Assembly (NCBI GenBank): GCA_963662795.1
Contig: OY759746.1
Location: 3,360,001-3,424,000 of the forward strand
Reading direction: 5' to 3'
Length of the DNA stretch: 64,000 nucleotides
Origin: Spirochaetia bacterium
Lineage (GTDB): Bacteria > Spirochaetota > Spirochaetia > CADAEX01
The translations under genes and the position numbers were made by a program. Shown piece after piece: positions 4,866-35,943 of the stretch; the first letter of the stretch is position 1, and every line of letters begins with the position of its first letter. Under the pieces are notes generated by a model. That model saw only the letters and a program-made list of their open reading frames with translations. It had not been told where the DNA came from and searched no databases.

Positions 4866-6112
4866 GATGAGTCAATTCTGTATCTTGAAGTGAGTGCAAA
4901 AAGCTCGATCCTGTTTGAAGTGCCGGTTTTCTGAAATATATTTGTAAGATGTGTTTCTACTGTACGTTCTGAAATAAAAAGCATCTCCGCTATCTGCCGG
5001 CTGCTTTTCCCTTCAGCGCATAATTCAATAATCTCCATTTCCCTTTTTGTGATTTTATGGGTTTTGATAAAATCAGAAATACATTCATTTATCCTTGAAA
5101 GAACCAGAAAACCACTGATTTCGTTAAATGAATCGGTAAGTACTTTTATATATGAGTCACTGTACAGGGGATGATCTTTGTTGAGAAAAATCAGTCTGCA
5201 TTTCATATTTACTGTAATGCTATCTTTCATAACTGAGAAAATTGACATGGTTTTTTCCGGTTCCTGTATGAGGCCGGGGAAATAAACAGGATTTTTTTCA
5301 AAATCCCGGTCAATTACAAGAGTTTTTGCTGCATAAAGATTTGCGTTTGAAATATTCAAAGAAGTATCAATGATAAATACCATCTCGTTTATATTGTCCA
5401 GAACCTCATTTGCAACCAGAAAAGGTGTGATTTCCAGAAAATTATATCTTAAAAGGATAAACCACAGGCCGTATATATAAAAAGCAACTGTTAACGGGCC
5501 AAGCGGGGGGATGTGAATATTGAAAATATACGGGAAAAGAAAATCGAGAAAGCTTCCAATAAAAAGGGTCATAAGGGTGAAAACAGAAATAAGCAGCGCC
5601 TGTCTTTGCTGTATCCGTCTGCCGGAGTGTGATGCCCATTTATGAATCAGGTAAACAGTTGACGCGGTATAGGGAAAGTAATACAGCAGATATACCCAGA
5701 ACCATGGGGACCCGTAAGCCGGAGAATAACGCCATATCCCGTTCAGTAAAATAAAATCCTTAAAAAGGGATGAAGAAATAAATGTCGAGGCAAGAATAAA
5801 AGGGACAGGAATATAAATCAGCAGATCCTTTTTTCTGAATCCGTTACGGTAAGCAAGATTAAGATAAAAATGGAGATTAAATGCGTAGAAAGGGGCAAAC
5901 CCTAATGATGAAAGCCTGTACCAGAAAACTACGGTTTCCCGGTCATCTCCTGAAACAGAGTAACCGGCACAAAAAAGAAATATTGACATGGTAAAACACA
6001 TCAGAAAAAATAGTTTTCTGGCGTATTTTCTCCCTTCACCCTTAAGCGCAATAACCCCGAGAAAAATACAGCTTACAGACATTGCTGCCGTGAATGCAAG
6101 ATACAGTTTCAT
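4859..6112 (-). CDS. Membrane-bound one-component regulator: 7TM (HisKA_7TM-like) + PAS-like + LuxR/GerE HTH
   Basis: About seven hydrophobic segments in the first ~225 aa; VLDNINEMVFIID PAS-like start; C-terminal ITKREMEIIELCAEGKSSRQIAEMLFISERTVETHLTNIFQK. Confidence 0.85.
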   Translation of the reverse strand: MKLYLAFTAAMSVSCIFLGVIALKGEGRKYARKLFFLMCFTMSIFLFCAGYSVSGDDRETVVFWYRLSSLGFAPFYAFNLHFYLNLAYRNGFRKKDLLIYIPVPFILASTFISSSLFKDFILLNGIWRYSPAYGSPWFWVYLLYYFPYTASTVYLIHKWASHSGRRIQQRQALLISVFTLMTLFIGSFLDFLFPYIFNIHIPPLGPLTVAFYIYGLWFILLRYNFLEITPFLVANEVLDNINEMVFIIDTSLNISNANLYAAKTLVIDRDFEKNPVYFPGLIQEPEKTMSIFSVMKDSITVNMKCRLIFLNKDHPLYSDSYIKVLTDSFNEISGFLVLSRINECISDFIKTHKITKREMEIIELCAEGKSSRQIAEMLFISERTVETHLTNIFQKTGTSNRIELFALTSRYRIDSST

Positions 6113-26183: not shown

Positions 26184-26250
26184 AAAATACAGAAAGGATT
26201 TTTTAAGCCGGTGTAACACTGATTGACACAATACTTATGATGGTTAATAA

Positions 26251-26264
26251 TGAATGAAAATTCA
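26251..26264. promoter_or_regulatory. Operator TGAAT-N4-ATTCA in the tetR2 promoter
   Basis: TGAATGAAAATTCA downstream of TTGACA(26223); same palindrome at 26882-26895. Confidence 0.65.
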
Positions 26265-26282
26265 AAATTGGGAGATCAACCT

Positions 26283-26864
26283 GTGCCGCAGGTGTTAAAA
26301 GAAGAGATAAGGGAAAAAATAATGAAATCTGCTCTTGGTGAATTTTATGGAAAGGGATTCAAGTCTGCTACCATGAAAGACATTGCTTCAGCCGCCGGAA
26401 TTCCTACAGGGCTGATCTACTCATATTTTAAAAGCAAGGAGGATCTGCTTGAAAAAATAGTGCAGCCGGTAATTTCCCTGCTTAAGGACAGTATTCTTGA
26501 TAAGCTTCCTGATAACCCGGAAAATAATTTATATAATAAGGACTTGCCCATAATTCTCCGCTGCATTGAATATTACAATATGGAGATGGTTATACTTATC
26601 GATAAAAGTGAGGGGAGCAAAGTTTTTGAAATCAAAGAGGCAATTATTGATGATGTTACACGTCATTTGAAAATAACACCAATTCTTAAAGACACTGACT
26701 TTGACGAGATTTTTTATCACATTCTTGCAACAAACTTTATGGAAGGGGTATTTGAAATTGCAAGACATTATTCCGGCAGGGGTTGGGCTGAAACCATGCT
26801 GGATCTTCTGATAAAGCAGCATCTTTATGGAATCAGTTCCCTGCTCAAAGAAAAAGGGTCATGA
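26283..26864 (+). CDS. TetR/AcrR family regulator (start reassigned to GTG 26283)
   Basis: PQVLKEEIREKIMKSALGEFYGKGFKSATMKDIASAAGIPTGLIYSYFKSKEDL; GGGAGA RBS. Confidence 0.9.
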   Translation: MPQVLKEEIREKIMKSALGEFYGKGFKSATMKDIASAAGIPTGLIYSYFKSKEDLLEKIVQPVISLLKDSILDKLPDNPENNLYNKDLPIILRCIEYYNMEMVILIDKSEGSKVFEIKEAIIDDVTRHLKITPILKDTDFDEIFYHILATNFMEGVFEIARHYSGRGWAETMLDLLIKQHLYGISSLLKEKGS

Positions 26865-26881
26865 TTTTTTTGCTTTAAAAC

Positions 26882-26895
26882 TGAATGTATATTCA
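26882..26895. promoter_or_regulatory. Operator TGAAT-N4-ATTCA upstream of MATE
   Basis: TGAATGTATATTCA palindrome. Confidence 0.65.
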
Positions 26896-26923
26896 ATATT
26901 AAAAAATTATAAGGAAACAGATA

Positions 26924-28324
26924 ATGAATGAGAAAAGACTTCAAATGATGAGAGAAGGAAAGGTTCCAACTGTCCTTCTGAAACTGGGGATGCCCGCAAT
27001 AATAGGGATGATGACCAGTGCTTTGTACAATATTGTAGACGCATATTTTGTCGGAGGACTTGGGACAAGCCAGATGGGAGCCGTATCCATAGTCTTTCCC
27101 CTGATGATGATCATAATCGGTCTGGGACTTACCTTCGGAAGCGGTGCAGGATCCTATATATCAAGGCTTCTGGGGGAAGCAAACAGGGAGCAGGCAAACA
27201 GAACTGCATCAACAGCCCTTTTTACAAGCCTGATTATAGGAACCGTTTTTGCTGGCGGAATCCTCTTTTCCCTTGACAGGGTTCTAATTACTCTAGGTGC
27301 TACAGAAACAATACTGCCCTTTGCCAGATCTTACGCAGTGATATTTATCTCAGGAGGAATTCTTGAAATATTTAATGTCTGTATGAACAACATTGTTATT
27401 TCAGAAGGAGCTTCTAAGGTAACGATGACCTCTATGCTCCTTGCTGTTGGGCTGAACATTGTGCTGGATCCCATATTTATTTATACATTCGGGTTCGGTA
27501 TAAAGGGAGCAGCCATAGCTACAGTAATAGCGCAGGCTTCTGCATCACTTTTTTTCCTGTGGTATCTTCTGTGCAAGAAAGGGGCATTAAGAATATCAGT
27601 CGGGTATTTTACAATTAATAAAACCATCTATTCTCAGATACTGAAGATCGGTATCCCTTTATTGCTGCTTCAGTTGGCTTCAAGCGTTTCAATGGCTCTG
27701 ACAAACATGGTGGCAAAAAGTTACGGTGATACTGCTGTTGCTGCCATGGGGGTGGTCGCCCGTGTTTCTACTCTTGGGGCTTATGTTGTATTCGGATATG
27801 TCAAAGGCTTTCAGCCTCTGGCTGGCTACAGCTATGGCGCGAGAAATTATGAACGTCTTAATAAAACAATAAATATATCGTTACTATATACAACAGTCTA
27901 TTGTGTTATTGTCTCTTTAATAATGATTTTTATGCCTGAGTATATAATATCTATGTTCAGTAAGAATGATTCAGAACTGATTGCTGTTGGAACTGCAGCT
28001 CTAAGGGCTAACGGATTTATTTTTTCCGCGTTCGGGTTTCAGATGATATATTCAACTCTTTTTTTGGCTCTTGGTAAGGGAAAAGAGGGGGGAATTCTAA
28101 GTATGAGCAGACAGGGAATATTCTTTATCCCCCTTATTATAATTCTTCCCGGATTATTAGGGTTAAACGGTATAATTTACACGCAGTTGATAGCAGATGT
28201 ATTTACAGTAGTTATTACTGCGGCTTTTGCAGTAATGCTTAAGCGGGAATTGAAAGATGATGCTTTTTCCAGTCTTAATGAATCAAGGGAATTAAATATT
28301 GTTATATCTAAATATTATAATTGA
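26924..28324 (+). CDS. MATE family efflux transporter (MepA-like)
   Basis: LYNIVDAYFVG, ISRLLG, NIVLDPIFI...GIKGAAIATVIAQ, QPLAGYSYGA; 12 TM. Confidence 0.92.
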   Translation: MNEKRLQMMREGKVPTVLLKLGMPAIIGMMTSALYNIVDAYFVGGLGTSQMGAVSIVFPLMMIIIGLGLTFGSGAGSYISRLLGEANREQANRTASTALFTSLIIGTVFAGGILFSLDRVLITLGATETILPFARSYAVIFISGGILEIFNVCMNNIVISEGASKVTMTSMLLAVGLNIVLDPIFIYTFGFGIKGAAIATVIAQASASLFFLWYLLCKKGALRISVGYFTINKTIYSQILKIGIPLLLLQLASSVSMALTNMVAKSYGDTAVAAMGVVARVSTLGAYVVFGYVKGFQPLAGYSYGARNYERLNKTINISLLYTTVYCVIVSLIMIFMPEYIISMFSKNDSELIAVGTAALRANGFIFSAFGFQMIYSTLFLALGKGKEGGILSMSRQGIFFIPLIIILPGLLGLNGIIYTQLIADVFTVVITAAFAVMLKRELKDDAFSSLNESRELNIVISKYYN

Positions 28325-28340
28325 ATGAAGTTGAAATATA

Positions 28341-28389
28341 TTGACAATAGATCGACATTTGTCTAATGTGGTATTATAAAGTAATACCA
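28341..28389 (+). promoter_or_regulatory. sigma70 promoter with palindromic operator TGGTATTA-TAAAG-TAATACCA
   Basis: TTGACA(28341)-17-TAATGT(28364); perfect 8-5-8 palindrome at 28369-28389 covering the expected +1. Confidence 0.7.
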
Positions 28390-28406
28390 GTAAAGGTGAG
28401 AATAAT

Positions 28407-28655
28407 ATGAAACAGAAAACTATTACCTTTAAAATTAATGAGGATATTGAGCAGTTGTTGATTAAAATTCCCAACAAATCCGAGTTTATCAGAAATTCAA
28501 TTTCAAAATCACTCGACTGTGTTTGCCCTCTTTGCGATGGAACAGGTATATTAAATTCCAAACAGAAAGAACACTGGGATCAGTTTAAACTGAATCATTC
28601 AATAAAACGTTGTGGAGAATGTGACGAACTTTATATTTCATGTAAAAAAAAATAA
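28407..28655 (+). CDS. CopG/ribbon-helix-helix protein with C-terminal Cys/His metal-binding region
   Basis: TITFKI beta-strand + NKSEFIRNSI helix; CVCPLCDGTG, HW, H, CGEC, C. Confidence 0.72.
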   Translation: MKQKTITFKINEDIEQLLIKIPNKSEFIRNSISKSLDCVCPLCDGTGILNSKQKEHWDQFKLNHSIKRCGECDELYISCKKK

Positions 28656-28676
28656 TTATCAAAAAGGGGAGTCATT

Positions 28677-29297
28677 ATGAAAAATTGGGTAATAATAGCT
28701 GTATTGCTGCTTATATTTGCAAATAATGCAGATGGGAAAATAAATGTCTATACAAGCATATTACCTCAGAAGTTTTTTGTTGAAAAAATAGGGGGAGACA
28801 GGGTCACCGTTGATGTACTTGTAATACCCGGAAAAAGTCCTGCTATATATGAACCTGCTCCAAAGCAGGTATTAAACCTGAGTAATGCTGATGTGTTTTT
28901 CAGAATAGGTGTCCCGTTTGAAATTGCATTTATCCCAAATCTAAGAAGTAATATAAAAAATCTGAAGAATGTTCTTCTTCCTTATCGAGATGAATCTTTT
29001 TTTGTTTTCCATCCTGCTTTTAGATATTTTGCAGATGAATTCAGCTTGAAACAAATTACAGTTGAAACAGGAGGAAAGGAACCGCCTTCAAACACACTTG
29101 AAAAAATGATACAAAATGCTTTGGATAACAATATTAGAATTATTTTTGTACAGCCGGTATTTTCCAAAAAGAGTGCAGAAGCTGTTGCATCTGCTATTAA
29201 CGGAAATGTTGTTATACTAAATCCGCTTGATCCTGATTATATAAATAATCTTAAACATATTGCCAATGAAATAAGAATAGTAGTTAACAAAGAATAA
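28677..29297 (+). pseudogene. ZnuA/TroA-family metal-binding protein with a large in-frame internal deletion (possibly non-functional)
   Basis: SILPQKFFVEKIGG, SPAIYEP, FHPAFRYFADEF, IFVQP motifs present, but only 206 aa; the central loop / DPHxW region is missing. Confidence 0.65.
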
Positions 29298-29304
29298 AAT
29301 TCTC

Positions 29305-30342
29305 ATGATAAAAATGGACTATAAAAAACTGCTTAAACTCTCAGATAAGGTGGTTTTATTTCAATTATTAACATTCACTTTGTATTTTGCTTTTATTATA
29401 GCGAAAAGCGGTGTTTTTCAAAATGAATATTTAAAAAAATTTTCAATATTGTTTGTCACTATAGTTTTTGAAGGATTGCCATTTATAATAATTGGATCAA
29501 TAATATCCTCTATTATCCATATATATATTTCTGATGAAATAATTATGAAGTTGACACCCTCAAGAAAATTGTCCGGAATATTAATTGCAGCTTTACTTGG
29601 ATTTATCCTTCCTATATGTGAGTGTGCAATTGTTTCTGTTACAAAAAAATTGCTTGAAAAAAAAATGCCGATTTATATTGCTGTTACACTTTTAACTGCA
29701 ATGCCAATTGTAAATCCAATAGTGATCATGACTACCTATTTTGCATTTCCTGAACGATTAGATATTGTTTTTATCAGGCTTGTAACAGGTTTTTTATTAT
29801 CCGTATTAATTGGATTTATTGTCTCAATAGTATATAAAGGTAAAACATCTGTTCAGTTTCTACGAAATTCAAATGTTATAACGAAGACTGACATATGCTT
29901 GTGTAAATCCTGCAATCATCTACACGGTAATCCTCTTGATGGGTTTTATAAGGTTATTGACCATGCTGGATATGAGTTATATATCATTGGTCGTTTCTTT
30001 ATACTAGGATCTTTTTTAGCTACAATCTTTAGAACATGTATTCCTGAATCTTCTTTATTTATATTCATGAACAACCAAATATTGTCAATTTTACTTATGA
30101 TGAGTTTGGCTTATCTTTTGTCAATATGTTCAGAATCTGATGCGTTTATTGCAAGAAAATTCATTGGGATTTTCCCTGATAGTGCAATAATGAGTTTTTT
30201 AATTTTGGGTCCTATGATTGATATTAAAAATACAATTATGCTTTTAAATTTATTTAAACTGAAATTTACCATATTTCTGATATCAATTATTTCAATAACC
30301 TGTTTTTTATCAGCACTTTTTTTGGATTCTTTTGTTTTGTAA
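29305..30342 (+). CDS. DUF318/YcgR-like permease
   Basis: EGLPFIIIG, PICECAIV, PIVNP, LSICSESDAFIA, GPMIDIKN; C/H-rich loop CLCKSCNHLH. Confidence 0.85.
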   Translation: MIKMDYKKLLKLSDKVVLFQLLTFTLYFAFIIAKSGVFQNEYLKKFSILFVTIVFEGLPFIIIGSIISSIIHIYISDEIIMKLTPSRKLSGILIAALLGFILPICECAIVSVTKKLLEKKMPIYIAVTLLTAMPIVNPIVIMTTYFAFPERLDIVFIRLVTGFLLSVLIGFIVSIVYKGKTSVQFLRNSNVITKTDICLCKSCNHLHGNPLDGFYKVIDHAGYELYIIGRFFILGSFLATIFRTCIPESSLFIFMNNQILSILLMMSLAYLLSICSESDAFIARKFIGIFPDSAIMSFLILGPMIDIKNTIMLLNLFKLKFTIFLISIISITCFLSALFLDSFVL

Positions 30343-30352
30343 AGGGAAAAAA

Positions 30353-31111
30353 ATGCTGAAGAAGAGATTTTATTTTTATGAAACATTATGGCTTATTAAT
30401 CTCTTTGCATATACTGGACTTCTTCTCTATATAATTTTATCAAGTAAGGTAGAGATATTATTTCATCCAAGACAATATATATTTTTAATAATTACAGTTT
30501 TATTTTTCTTTTTTTTAATATATTTACAGTTTTATAATATCTATTCATTTAAGACGGAAAGAAAAATAAACAAAAGCATTGTCATTTTTTATATGCCCAT
30601 TTTATTTGCAATTATAGGACTGGCAAATGATAAAGACAGTATAATTAACACAGTATATAGACAGAATACTTTTATACCGGTAAATATACAGATCTTGTGT
30701 AACGATAAAGACAAAGAGGCTATATCAGAAACAGATAGTGTAATTATGAATAAAGATAACTATTATCAGGAATATAATAAAATATATGATGATATTGGTA
30801 AATATATCGGTAGAGAAATACAGATAAATGGTTATGTTTACAGGGAGAGTGTTTATAAAGACAACCAGTTTGTACTTGCTCAGGATTTGATGTGGTGTTG
30901 TGCTGCCGATATAGCAGTTATAGGTTTTTTTTGTGAATATGACAATGCTTCGGAGTTTGAAACCGGTTCCTGGTATGAGCTTTCAGGTAAGATCGCAAAG
31001 TCGTTATATCCTGATCAGGAGACAGGGAAAGAACGTGAATTTCCTTCCATACATATAGATAAATACAGAAAAATAAATCCCCCTGATATTCCATGTCTTT
31101 TCCCTTACTGA
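30353..31111 (+). CDS. TIGR03943/DUF1980 (YcgQ-like) permease subunit
   Basis: HPR, three N-terminal TM, GREIQINGYVY, MWCCAAD, WYELSG. Confidence 0.82.
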   Translation: MLKKRFYFYETLWLINLFAYTGLLLYIILSSKVEILFHPRQYIFLIITVLFFFFLIYLQFYNIYSFKTERKINKSIVIFYMPILFAIIGLANDKDSIINTVYRQNTFIPVNIQILCNDKDKEAISETDSVIMNKDNYYQEYNKIYDDIGKYIGREIQINGYVYRESVYKDNQFVLAQDLMWCCAADIAVIGFFCEYDNASEFETGSWYELSGKIAKSLYPDQETGKEREFPSIHIDKYRKINPPDIPCLFPY

Positions 31112-31122
31112 TCAGAAATTAA

Positions 31123-31998
31123 GGAACCTCTGAATAATTCAAGTTTTTAAGCACCTTTTCTATAATTAATTCTGTTCAGATAATCCTATGAAGGAAAACG
31201 GGCCAAAAATCCTGAATTACTCCCCTAAGGGATTCATGTTTTTCATACCTATCCCGGGTATTTTTCTTAATTATTTCAGTTATGCACATGAGAGACCCTG
31301 TCTTTTCGCCAAAACAATATTTACCAGTGCACATGAAACAAATACATGATTTGCATTTTTATCAAGACCACGATACCTGACCTTTTGATATCCAAACTGT
31401 CTTTTAAGTACATGAAAGACATGTTCTACCTTTCCCTGATTCGTGATTTGTTTCTGTTCTGCTCTTTCTCTTTCTCAGTAAGTACTTTATTCCTGCTTCC
31501 CTTTTTCTGTATAAAGCTTTTTGCATAAGGTGATACTTTTGATATTTTTTCCTTTTGTCCACAGTAGGCTGAATCTCCCCAGACTCTTGTTTCTTCTCCA
31601 TGAAGAAGATCTTCCAGTACCTGCGAATCATGCACACTTGCAGCTGTTACAACAACTGAATGTATCAGTTTTGTCCTGCTGTCCACTCCTATGTGGGTTT
31701 TCATTCCAAAATGCCACTGATTCCCTTTTTTCGTCTGCTTCATTTCAGGGTCTCTTTCTTTTTTTATATTCTTTGTTGAACTAGCCGCTTCTATTATTGT
31801 GGCATTTACTATGGCTCGATTACTTCGGACAGTTCTTTCCACGGTATTATTTTATCCATCTGTTTAAGAAACACTTCTTTCTTTGTTGTTTTTCTGCATT
31901 TTTCAAAGCCTTCTGTTGCTAAAGATACCTGACGCATTTTCTCACTCCCATAGCTGGCTTTGATTCTATCATTTTTTCAATAATTAATCAGAGGTTCA
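31123..31998 (-). mobile_element. Internally deleted IS5-family element with both terminal inverted repeats
   Basis: TIRs GGAACCTCTGAATAATT / AATTAATCAGAGGTTCA flanked by TTAA and CTAG. Transposase N-terminus MRQVSLATEGFEKCRKTTKKEVFL (ATG 31937) is joined directly to [39 protein letters not shown]. Confidence 0.88.
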
Positions 31999-34479: not shown

Positions 34480-35943
34480 ATGGCTCTTGATTACTTTGAA
34501 TTAATAAACAGACGGAAAACCCATCCCTCCTGGCGTCTTATGACAGCTGAAAACGGCCCTCTTATTGCAGGTTTTCTTGATTCTGTTTTCAGGGAAAACA
34601 ATCTCCGAAGTATAGAAGAGGCTGAGCTTTCCATGAGGCTCGAAGACTATCTTTATTTCCTCTCTGAAGCAGGTGCACAGCAGGAGTTTCCCCGGAGTGC
34701 AAGGGAATATCTTGATGAATGGGCCCATAACGAGAAGGGTTGGCTTAGAAAATATTATCCCCAGGGGTCGGATGAACCCCATTACGACCTCAGTCCTGCT
34801 GTCGAGAAGGCCCTTCAGTGGCTTGACGGGCTGTTTGAACAGGGTTTCATAGGTACCGAGAGCCGGCTGTTTGCAAGTATTGATCTCTTGAGGCAGATTG
34901 TCCATGGAGTGGAAGAGGATAAAACTGAACGGATAAAGGAGCTTGAACGTCAGAAGAATGAAATAAACCGGCAGATTAAAGCTATTGAAGAGGGTGATAT
35001 TTCCACACTTGATTCGAGGGAGGTCCGTGAGCGTTATATTCAGTTCAGCAAAATATCCCGCGAGCTCCTTGGCGACTTCAGGATGGTTGAACATAATTTC
35101 AGGGAGCTTGACCGCTCTGTAAGGGAAGAGATTGCTGCCTGGACCGGCGAGAAGGGAGAACTTCTTGAGACAATATTCGGAGAACATGATCAGATTACGC
35201 AGTCTGAACAGGGGCTGAGTTTCAGGGCATTCTGGGACTTTTTGATGTCCTCGGGAAGCCAGGAAGAGTTTACATCGCTCCTTGACCGGGTTTTTGAGCT
35301 TGAAGAGCTTGGTGATTTAACAAATGATAAACGCTTGAAGCGTATTCATTTTGAGTGGATAAATGCCGGTGAACAGACACAGCGGATGGTCGCAAGGCTT
35401 TCGAGGCAGCTGAGGAGGTTTCTTGATGACCGAAGTTATTATGAAAACAAACGGATAGTAAGGCTTCTTGACAGCATCGATCAAAGAGCACTTGAAGCCA
35501 GGGAAGATGCTCCTCAGAAGCCGTTTTTCATGGAGATAGAGGGTATCCGTCCCTCTTTCCAGCTCCCTATGGAGCGACCGCTCTTCTCTCCTCCTCTTAA
35601 GATTGAACTTGATTCAGTGATTATAGGGGGAGAGGGGAAAGATATTGATACATCAGTTCTTTTTAATCAGGTTGTTGTCGATAAATTCAGACTAAAACGT
35701 AATATTGATGAAATCCTTGAACTCCGGGAGCAGGTGAGTCTTGGCGCTATAATTGAGCACTGCCCGCTTGAAGAGGGCCTTGCCGAGCTTGTTACCTATT
35801 TTACCATAGCTGAAGAAAACCGGTTTGCGTTTGTTGATGAGGACAAATCAGAAGAGGTATTCTGGATAGATCATGATGGTAAAAATAGATATGCAAAAAT
35901 GCCTTTGATAATGTTTCAAAAAAGGAAGAAAGAGAATGACTAA
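34480..35943 (+). CDS. jetA: Wadjet protein JetA (DUF3375)
   Basis: HPSWRLM, YLDEW...GWLRKYY, FIGTESRL, SEQGLSFRAFWDFL, PLEEGLAELVTY. Confidence 0.88.
   Translation: MALDYFELINRRKTHPSWRLMTAENGPLIAGFLDSVFRENNLRSIEEAELSMRLEDYLYFLSEAGAQQEFPRSAREYLDEWAHNEKGWLRKYYPQGSDEPHYDLSPAVEKALQWLDGLFEQGFIGTESRLFASIDLLRQIVHGVEEDKTERIKELERQKNEINRQIKAIEEGDISTLDSREVRERYIQFSKISRELLGDFRMVEHNFRELDRSVREEIAAWTGEKGELLETIFGEHDQITQSEQGLSFRAFWDFLMSSGSQEEFTSLLDRVFELEELGDLTNDKRLKRIHFEWINAGEQTQRMVARLSRQLRRFLDDRSYYENKRIVRLLDSIDQRALEAREDAPQKPFFMEIEGIRPSFQLPMERPLFSPPLKIELDSVIIGGEGKDIDTSVLFNQVVVDKFRLKRNIDEILELREQVSLGAIIEHCPLEEGLAELVTYFTIAEENRFAFVDEDKSEEVFWIDHDGKNRYAKMPLIMFQKRKKEND

Follow-up and report, generated by a model that had tools for sequence, protein, structure and literature searches.

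The 64,000 nt stretch of Spirochaetia bacterium DNA described here, hereafter the window, contains a four-gene operon. The first gene encodes an 82-residue protein with a predicted N-terminal ribbon-helix-helix (RHH) domain and a C-terminal tail rich in cysteine and histidine. The accepted regulators of bacterial zinc uptake are Zur and, in some Firmicutes, AdcR/ZitR. We propose that the 82-residue protein likely plays Zur's role in this operon. Thus, it would be a local, autoregulated and zinc-responsive repressor of zinc acquisition genes, with a DUF318/DUF1980 membrane protein pair as the working cargo. Comparative genomics gives this hypothesis strong support; across several phyla, relatives of the gene sit beside ZnuA-type uptake genes and behind one conserved operator.

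A small regulator gene heads the operon

All four genes are on the forward strand, between positions 28407 and 31111. The promoter, operator and genes are listed below.

28341..28369, forward strand: putative σ70-type promoter; TTGACA (28341-28346), 17 nt spacer, weak −10 element TAATGT (28364-28369)
28369..28389, no strand: operator, TGGTATTA-TAAAG-TAATACCA; boxes GTATTAT (28371-28377) and GTAATAC (28381-28387)
28407..28655, forward strand: regulator gene, 82 residues; predicted RHH at about residues 3-37, then C-terminal CxxCxGxG knuckle and CxxC hairpin
28677..29297, forward strand: internally deleted znuA, 206 residues; PF01297 (E 2.5e-36), matched in two stretches
29305..30342, forward strand: DUF318/ArsP_1 permease, 345 residues; Pfam PF03773 (E 2.4e-52)
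30332..31111, forward strand: DUF1980/TIGR03943 subunit; TIGR03943 at 102.9 bits (cut-off 88.8), DUF1980_C PF21537 (E 8.2e-28)

The intergenic gaps are 21 nt and 7 nt, followed by an 11 nt overlap between the DUF318 and DUF1980 genes. The sequence AAGGTGA is found 8 nt 5' of the regulator ATG. For the DUF1980 gene, translation more likely begins with the ATG at 30353, and the protein would then match the 252-residue product of locus L001 (L and G numbers denote loci and genomes respectively). An earlier note on this DNA had described, from the letters and open reading frames, an 82-residue protein with six cysteines and two histidines in the arrangement CxCxxC…HW…H…CxxC…C. The protein is present, and the residues concerned are C38, C40, C43, C69, C72, C79, H56 and H64. 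The note had also described a downstream ZnuA-like gene and a two-subunit permease. Pfam and NCBIfam annotation identified both, and found neither znuB nor znuC within the window operon.

The promoter was placed by eye and by comparison with L001, where TTGACT-17-TATTAT is directly 5' of the operator. A consensus promoter scan called no forward strand promoter at 28341-28369. The perfect 8-5-8 palindrome noted earlier in the promoter region is real, and its arms are 100% complementary. Its supposed location over position +1 is conjectural, since the scan called no promoter there.

The regulator gene adjoins ZnuA-type uptake genes in several phyla

Gene order was compared in two sets of loci. 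The genome set contained 31 loci, from a scan of one genome per species, with the window as the 32nd. Genes at these loci were annotated with hidden Markov models made from the loci's own gene clusters, and representatives of the clusters were compared with Pfam to check their identity. The metagenome set contained the best 80 of 394 confirmed relatives. By lineage, the genome loci are from Spirochaetia, Spirochaetales, Leptospirales and Oceanispirochaeta (12), Lentisphaeria and Victivallales (10), Desulfobulbales (3), Zixibacteria (2), FCPU426 (1), Myxococcales (1) and unclassified bacteria (2). Cultured carriers are Desulfopila aestuarii DSM 18488 (L028) and Desulfosediminicola flagellatus IMCC35005 (L026).

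ZnuA is encoded directly 3' of the regulator at 31 of the 32 genome loci. The exception is L031; at L015, which is counted, the genes overlap by 1 nt. A complete znuA-ATPase-ABC-3 set is present at 25 loci, and two loci are truncated by contig ends. In the window and at L001, L002 and L003, znuA is present and znuCB absent. Amongst the metagenome loci, ZnuA-type importer genes adjoin the regulator in 64 of 80. Thus, ZnuA is directly downstream in 59 cases, an ATP-binding cassette (ABC) ATPase is directly downstream in three, and an ABC-3 gene is directly upstream in two. Four loci were too short to judge and 12 had none of these arrangements. The co-occurrence with znuA anticipated in the earlier note was therefore found, and co-occurrence with DUF318 was found in spirochaete relatives.

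The 12 exceptions include one locus with a downstream TonB-dependent receptor gene, one with a transposase gene and six that encode a His/Cys-rich membrane protein of ~205 residues. In those six, an integral membrane protein of ~205-217 residues replaces znuACB 3' of the regulator (L066:2333-2962, L078:1430-2044, L092:1031-1645, L093:2246-2860, L114:5305-5955 and, in part, L081:781-1140). The protein matches no Pfam family. Its motifs are LHPxHV, PHxGHVxLSTWASLF and VW[IV]PCC, and it is a candidate for a new metal permease family. Separately, the TonB-dependent receptor gene (L061:1036-2196; Plug and CarboxypepD_reg) is positioned 3' of the regulator and would fit a zinc starvation receptor.

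The operator consists of two boxes inside the core promoter

By itself, the window palindrome appears barely to exceed chance. Its 7-5-7 core, with up to two mismatches, occurs once in the AT-rich 64 kb window; shuffled sequences had a mean of 0.15 matches, and 13 of the 100 contained one or more. The palindrome gains its significance from comparative data. An exact GTAWTA-N4-GTAWTA sequence is present within 200 nt upstream of the regulator gene at 31 of the 32 genome loci. Elsewhere in these loci, 338,820 nt of DNA contain 11 sites, even with one mismatch permitted. For the metagenome set, 59 of 80 loci have an exact operator within 250 nt upstream, 16 have none and five have less than 60 nt of upstream sequence. 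The background was six exact sites in 430,718 nt. Ten of the 16 loci without an exact operator have a site with one mismatch at −31 to −60. A further one of the 16 has an exact site at −268, and in two the regulator is the last gene of its operon.

The operator consensus is (G)GTATTAC-WWW-GTAWTAC(C), and the total length is 17 bp. The central W is T in 27 cases and A in five in box 1; the equivalent numbers for box 2 are 19 and 13. Hence, T and A flip freely at each box centre, which points to two separate, twofold, near-palindromic 7 bp boxes, spaced 10 bp centre to centre. By this comparison, the 8-5-8 palindrome of the window is one orientation of the two-box arrangement. The GTATTA-N5-TAATAC sequence picked out in the earlier note is thus conserved, and is better described as two 7 bp GTAWTAC boxes, 10 bp apart, in either orientation. 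The layout resembles the operators of Arc, MetJ and CopG, and would suit a pair of RHH dimers bound to the same DNA face.

The position of the operator is also informative. TTGAC is found within 45 nt upstream of 79 of the 90 exact operators and, in 50, the operator begins 2-6 nt past the hexamer. In the clade of the window, the operator sits after the −10 element instead. In every case the operator is inside the core promoter, as expected for a repressor.

The strict form of the operator is a single site in the 3.93 Mb genome from which the window derives, at this promoter. The predicted regulon in that genome is this one operon. A looser pattern was rejected as a genome-wide regulon signal; it gave eight sites in the same genome and seven in a control, as expected by chance. 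We also set aside additional sites with one mismatch at L002, L005, L006, L010 and L030, which look like noise. Similarly discarded were strict single-strand sites in G001, inside a long open reading frame, and in G003, next to an integrase fragment. Doubled operators, with four GTAWTAC boxes, occur at L004 (~900-950) and L006 (~5935-5985), and suggest higher-order binding by the regulator.

The regulator belongs to a conserved family with a predicted zinc knuckle

A word-based search identified nine close homologues of the regulator. With HMMER, and 1.84 billion representative sequences, the family comprises 227 clusters (50% identity) at E ≤ 1e-3 and 59 at E ≤ 1e-10. Relatives are labelled 'hypothetical' or 'CopG family' transcriptional regulator in their source records and, once, 'metal-responsive CopG/Arc/MetJ family'. 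In the ESM Atlas, the regulator falls among clusters that share no Pfam family. Of 83 family members scanned singly, 22 matched RHH_1 (PF01402; best E 3.4e-6) and 28 matched DnaJ_CXXCXGXG (PF00684). The family profile matched anti-TRAP (3lcz) in the PDB with an E value of 2.5e-4, and nothing else convincing. Our searches found neither a solved structure nor a Pfam model for the family.

We counted residue conservation over 83 aligned family members. R29 and C43 are present in all 83. C40 is found in 82, C69 and C72 in 80 each, H56 in 72, H64 in 64 and C79 in 60. Conversely, C38 is specific to one clade and is not conserved across the family. H64 and C79 tend to be retained together; both are present in 59 sequences, neither in 18, and six are discordant, in a count that ignores relatedness.

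An AF2 model of the regulator (pLDDT 85.4) has an extended N-terminus, helices at residues 12-19, 24-37 and 51-60, and a hairpin at 64-68/75-79. In the model, helices 12-19 and 24-37 would form the RHH fold; the knuckle follows and precedes helix 51-60. The sequence has a CopG/Arc/MetJ-like pattern, N23-K/R24-S25 with the invariant R29, which the modelled helices fit, and dimer formation and DNA binding are predicted. There is one copy of the CxxCxGxG motif (C40-G47) and one plain CxxC (C69 and C72), and both are predicted to participate in zinc binding. Judged by the secondary structure, C69 and C72 would be at the hairpin turn, facing C40 and C43, and H64 would be opposite C79 on the hairpin. 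A Foldseek comparison of the AF2 monomer with the PDB found no solved structure like the whole model (none with E ≤ 0.001; best E 1.3). Prediction of a complex of two regulator copies with two zinc ions scored 0.02, and was not used either way. The earlier note had suggested that an RHH protein with a Cys/His domain represents a type of metal-linked regulator. This suggestion fares well; the family is conserved, is tightly tied to ZnuA-type uptake genes and has one conserved operator at its own promoter.

Partner ZnuA proteins point to zinc

The full-length ZnuA of the nearest relative best matches Synechocystis ZnuA in the PDB (1pq4; E 6.6e-67). Subsequent matches are YcdH, AdcA and E. coli ZnuA, and then the manganese and iron proteins MntC, PsaA and YfeA. 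The highest-ranked NCBIfam and PDB matches of the binding proteins are to zinc proteins in every case (ZnuA, AztC, AdcA and 1pq4). We examined the ligand triads of 77 partner binding proteins. The triad is HHH in 47, AHH in 21, EHH in four, THH in one, GHH in one and HHE, the manganese type, in one; two are incomplete. The third-position histidine is kept in 75 of the 77, and loops rich in histidine and acidic residues are common. The alanine form has SPATYEP, compared to the zinc-specific DPHTYEP, and is found at L001-L003, L005-L007, L009, L010, L012, L013 and 11 metagenome loci. ZnuA variants with alanine or glutamate as the first ligand may have a variant metal site. Taken together, the HHH triads, the matches to zinc proteins and the loops make zinc the most likely cargo. 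By extension from the cargo, zinc would also be the most likely signal.

The znuA gene of the window is a deletion remnant

The window ZnuA has 206 residues compared to 293 in the nearest relative. Alignment with 13 full-length relatives shows that ~87 codons are gone, in frame, at about 28967/28968, between '...NLK' and 'NVLLPYR...'. With this segment went the His-rich loop, the ligand in DPHxWLSP and the long helix that joins the two domains. PF01297 covers the protein only at profile positions 1-70 and 156-260, and the ligand triad reads A-(gap)-H. The signal-peptide-like N-terminus is kept. Thus, the protein belongs to PF01297 by descent, is incomplete, and departs from the two-lobe, helix-joined architecture of the family. 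We considered an assembly slip and ruled it out; contigs from three samples, in two studies, carry the same deleted form and bridge the junction without gaps. They include one of 28.6 kb, with two substitutions, and one of 360 nt that spans the junction. The window znuA is an in-frame deletion remnant, probably inactive as a binding protein. The earlier idea that the permease may use a binding protein is unsupported, given the three elements missing from the window ZnuA (a metal ligand, the His-rich loop and the interdomain helix).

Elsewhere in this genome, znuA, znuC and znuB form a complete operon, followed by a gene for a 136-residue Fur-family protein (G000:C1:210822-213942). The ZnuA encoded there is 326 residues long and has the HHH triad, together with a long loop rich in histidine. 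Upstream of the operon, repeated TTTGCAAATGA-type boxes look like a Zur/Fur box. Hence, the description of the system as 'Zur-independent', made in the earlier note, finds no support in a genome with its own znuACB operon and Fur-family gene. There are two Fur-family genes in this genome, both outside the window operon, and one in G006, the genome of the closest relative. One plausible history is that a complete znuACB-zur unit was acquired, making the old binding protein redundant, and that this decayed whilst the regulator and permease pair stayed intact.

G005, G006 and G007 each encode only one full PF01297 protein, the intact ZnuA linked to the RHH gene. These genomes have, elsewhere and without the operator, a znuC-znuB pair that lacks a binding protein. 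This pair is therefore the more obvious partner, and the RHH-linked ZnuA most simply would serve it. An ABC-3 (ZnuB-type) gene at G000:C1:1260807-1261562 is in three pieces, interrupted by TGA, TAG and TAA stops, and is probably a pseudogene. We considered this degraded gene at 1.26 Mb as the lost partner of the window ZnuA, and rejected it; the ZnuCB proteins of relatives find only znuC2B2, at 0.21 Mb. The identity to znuC2B2 is 42-48%, and there is no closer copy in the genome.

The DUF318/DUF1980 pair belongs to the regulon

A TIGR03943 protein adjoining a PF03773 permease defines the pair and, in the window, the two genes overlap. The permease motifs P-x-CEC, C-x3-SC-x-H and CSE-x-DAF are invariant in five of five co-regulated homologues, as is the CCAAD motif of the DUF1980 subunit. 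Three genomic arrangements were found. The pair is in the operon in the window and at L001, and at L006, where it follows znuACB in the same operon. At L003, it is divergent from the regulator, with its own perfect GGTATTACTAAGTAATAC ~78 nt upstream. In G005, the genome of L002, the pair is ~1.39 Mb away, and a TTGACC...TATAGT promoter is followed by GTAATACAAAGTAATAC. Besides the regulator's own promoter, this is the only site in G005 with both boxes ending in C. The three arrangements (in-operon, divergent and unlinked) are independent, and so indicate that DUF318/DUF1980 belongs to the regulon.

Import is favoured because the pair would be co-induced with importers. Thus, DUF318/DUF1980 is probably an importer, most likely of zinc. 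The proposal in the earlier note of a non-ABC uptake route, here a co-regulated one, gains support from separate operator copies (L003 and G005) and shared operons (L001 and L006). Recruitment of the pair, judged from the loci compared, is clade-specific. A search for DUF1980 in 20 genomes of the order found again only those with already known pairs. Profiles of DUF318 and DUF1980 gave nothing useful against PDB sequences. TIGR03943 matches also occur in the B. subtilis control genome.

A model for repression of zinc acquisition

We propose the following model. Two RHH dimers would bind the two GTAWTA(C/T) boxes, one helical turn apart. Since the boxes are inside the core promoter, binding would block RNA polymerase. 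The C-terminal 45 residues would bind zinc. C40, C43, C69 and C72 would form a Cys4 knuckle, probably structural, and H56, H64 and C79 a second, probably sensing, site. A filled sensing site would stabilise operator binding, with zinc acting as a co-repressor as it does for Zur or AdcR. Conversely, the operon would be transcribed when zinc is scarce. The cargo here is no longer a ZnuABC pump; znuA is a deletion remnant, and DUF318/DUF1980 would be the working cargo and most likely a zinc importer.

Some observations weigh against this model. The window regulator matched zero Pfam families. Assignment of the RHH fold draws on the matches of 22 of the 83 relatives, a weak NCBIfam aCcr1 match (E 0.0056) and the secondary structure of the AF2 model. 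The regulator has D73 and Y76 where many relatives carry histidine and, given these residues, its sensing site may differ. In the clade of the window, the ZnuA partner has alanine in place of the first histidine ligand, as do 21 of the 77 partners overall. There is no adjacent ZnuABC gene at 12 of the 80 metagenome loci. Given the Fur-family gene beside the second znuACB operon, the regulator would not be needed for basic zinc control in its own genome. The link to DUF318/DUF1980 is confined to five spirochaete genomes, and the pair was found in none of the best 80 of 394 metagenome loci. Finally, those DUF318 relatives that have been characterised export their substrates, and the best NCBIfam matches of the permease are to efflux families, namely SaoE (57.3 bits; cut-off 325) and SO_0444 Cu/Zn (54.4 bits; cut-off 300). 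Both scores are below the equivalog cut-offs, which places the permease outside the two families. A zinc resistance gene of Shewanella, important under zinc stress, also belongs to the DUF318 family.

The last two observations would be explained if DUF318/DUF1980 were an exporter. The window operon would then be a detoxification unit, and the regulator would leave the DNA when metal is high. Yet the same operator and regulator control ZnuABC importers at most loci. Furthermore, the importer genes and DUF318/DUF1980 form one operon at L006, and it would be futile to co-induce an importer and an exporter of one metal. The low scores against the efflux families (57 and 54 bits) also count against export, which we regard as improbable. 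Another possibility is that the architecture and repressor logic are as proposed, but that the effector is cobalt, nickel, cadmium, manganese or iron. PF01297 proteins also carry manganese and iron, and MntC, PsaA and YfeA appear lower in the PDB list. Cys-rich sites can bind cadmium, cobalt and nickel too, and DUF318 relatives handle arsenic, copper and zinc. Amongst the partner proteins, the first histidine ligand is missing in 21 of 77 and a manganese-type glutamate is present in one. The three-histidine triad in 47 of 77, the third-position histidine in 75 of 77, the top matches, all of which are zinc proteins, and the loops typical of zinc-specific ZnuA argue otherwise. Hence, we think that a different metal is rather unlikely.

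It is unlikely that the Cys/His domain is only structural, or only a contact between dimers. If so, the protein would be a metal-blind autoregulator or a thiol/redox sensor, and the metal response would come from elsewhere. The Cys4 core does resemble the structural zinc knuckles of DnaJ and anti-TRAP, a distant subfamily lacks H64 and C79, and the window protein lacks the histidines present at positions 73 and 76 in relatives. However, conservation in the subfamily linked to znuA extends past the Cys4 core to H56, H64 and C79. The link to zinc uptake is near universal across several phyla and no other regulator gene is conserved at the loci, a pattern difficult to account for if zinc is not the signal. 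G006, moreover, has a single Fur-family gene. It is scarcely credible that the RHH gene is of a generic CopG or antitoxin type, present by chance and with no role in the operon. Although relatives are labelled 'hypothetical' or 'CopG family transcriptional regulator', a toxin partner is absent, and gene order and operator are kept at more than 90 loci in several phyla.

Comparison with known metal sensors and transporters

The regulator resembles NikR in outline and Zur/AdcR in role yet, by sequence, lacks what defines each of the three. As in NikR, an N-terminal RHH domain would be joined to a C-terminal metal-binding domain, the operator has two parts, and the metal is predicted to act as a co-repressor of an uptake operon. 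The NikR_C/ACT-like domain is absent from the window protein, and from the 23 families matched by 83 relatives, in agreement with the earlier view that this protein is unlike NikR. The tail is instead a Cys4 knuckle of ~45 residues, and the linked transporters are of the zinc type rather than the nickel type. The half-sites of NikR are separated by 16 bp, whereas the boxes described here are 10 bp apart.

The predicted job, repression of znuABC-type genes when zinc is sufficient, is shared with Zur, of the Fur family, and AdcR/ZitR, of the MarR family. Zur has a structural Cys4 site and a separate sensing site, and the layout proposed for the regulator would parallel this. Conversely, the fold is unrelated; neither the window protein nor its relatives match PF01475 or MarR, and so the regulator is not Fur-like. 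It is also much smaller, and its regulon is apparently one or two operons per genome. DnaJ CXXCXGXG domains and anti-TRAP (RtpA) also have a CxxCxGxG knuckle followed by a helix. The regulator differs in having a single CxxCxGxG, with a plain CxxC on a β-hairpin as the second cysteine pair. It also adds the conserved H56, H64 and C79, and a fused DNA-binding domain.

Amongst the transport proteins, the full-length partners of relatives resemble Synechocystis ZnuA (1pq4) in keeping the DPHxW and FHP ligand motifs and the His-rich loop. The window copy differs; it is ~87 residues shorter, without the loop, the DPHxW ligand and the backbone helix, and the first ligand histidine is alanine in its clade. 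Like the window pair, ScfA/ScfB of Streptococcus pyogenes and YcgR/YcgQ of Bacillus consist of two membrane proteins, of ~300 and ~270 residues, and ScfAB may likewise combine a DUF318-type with a TIGR03943-type protein. One report gives ScfAB as being of unknown function, with an in-host fitness defect (PMC5584981). SO_0444 and ArsP (DUF318) differ from the window permease, which scores far below their NCBIfam cut-offs, in that they act singly and export.

The sections available to us of a 2024 Chem Rev review of metallosensors mention the ribbon-helix-helix fold only for NikR (nikABCDE), a nickel-only sensor. The same sections name Fur-family and MarR-family proteins as the sensors for zinc uptake. 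Our literature searches turned up no account of the regulator family, nor any report of what DUF1980 does. What would be new, judged by these comparisons, is the sensory module on a metal-responsive RHH repressor. An added lead is the likely function of DUF318/DUF1980.

More tentatively, and as a possibility that we do not hold to be probable, RHH-plus-zinc-knuckle proteins could be a further metallosensor family in Spirochaetota, Lentisphaerota, Zixibacteria, Desulfobulbales, FCPU426 and other lineages. They would be repressors of zinc uptake unrelated to Zur or AdcR, in which sensing at H56, H64 and C79 couples two RHH dimers on tandem GTAWTAC boxes. As part of the same proposal, the regulon would mark DUF318/DUF1980 (YcgR/YcgQ-type) and the ~205-residue His/Cys-rich membrane protein as zinc starvation importers. 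If the regulator acts as we propose, it would add a third, structurally unrelated, repressor of zinc uptake in several poorly studied phyla. It would also explain the regulation of znuABC in these lineages, and provide a very simple operator with which regulons could be predicted from metagenomes. The DUF318/DUF1980 pair is widespread and without a known substrate; that it is co-regulated with zinc importers suggests a function which can be tested directly. A protein of 82 residues and an operator of 17 bp could also be a biosensor part.

Neighbouring genes

Directly upstream of the operon, on the forward strand (26250-28324), are genes for a TetR-family regulator and a MATE efflux protein. 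They are syntenic at L001, 89-96% identical, and apparently unrelated to the metal operon. A 138-residue DDE_Tnp_1 transposase fragment is encoded on the reverse strand at 31426-31842 (E 7.1e-21; profile positions 8-160 of 200). This is ~300 nt past the end of the operon and may mark a past rearrangement. Further downstream, the forward strand encodes a full-length DUF3375 protein (34480-35943; E 1.6e-139); the DUF3375 family is the JetA subunit of Wadjet-type anti-plasmid systems.

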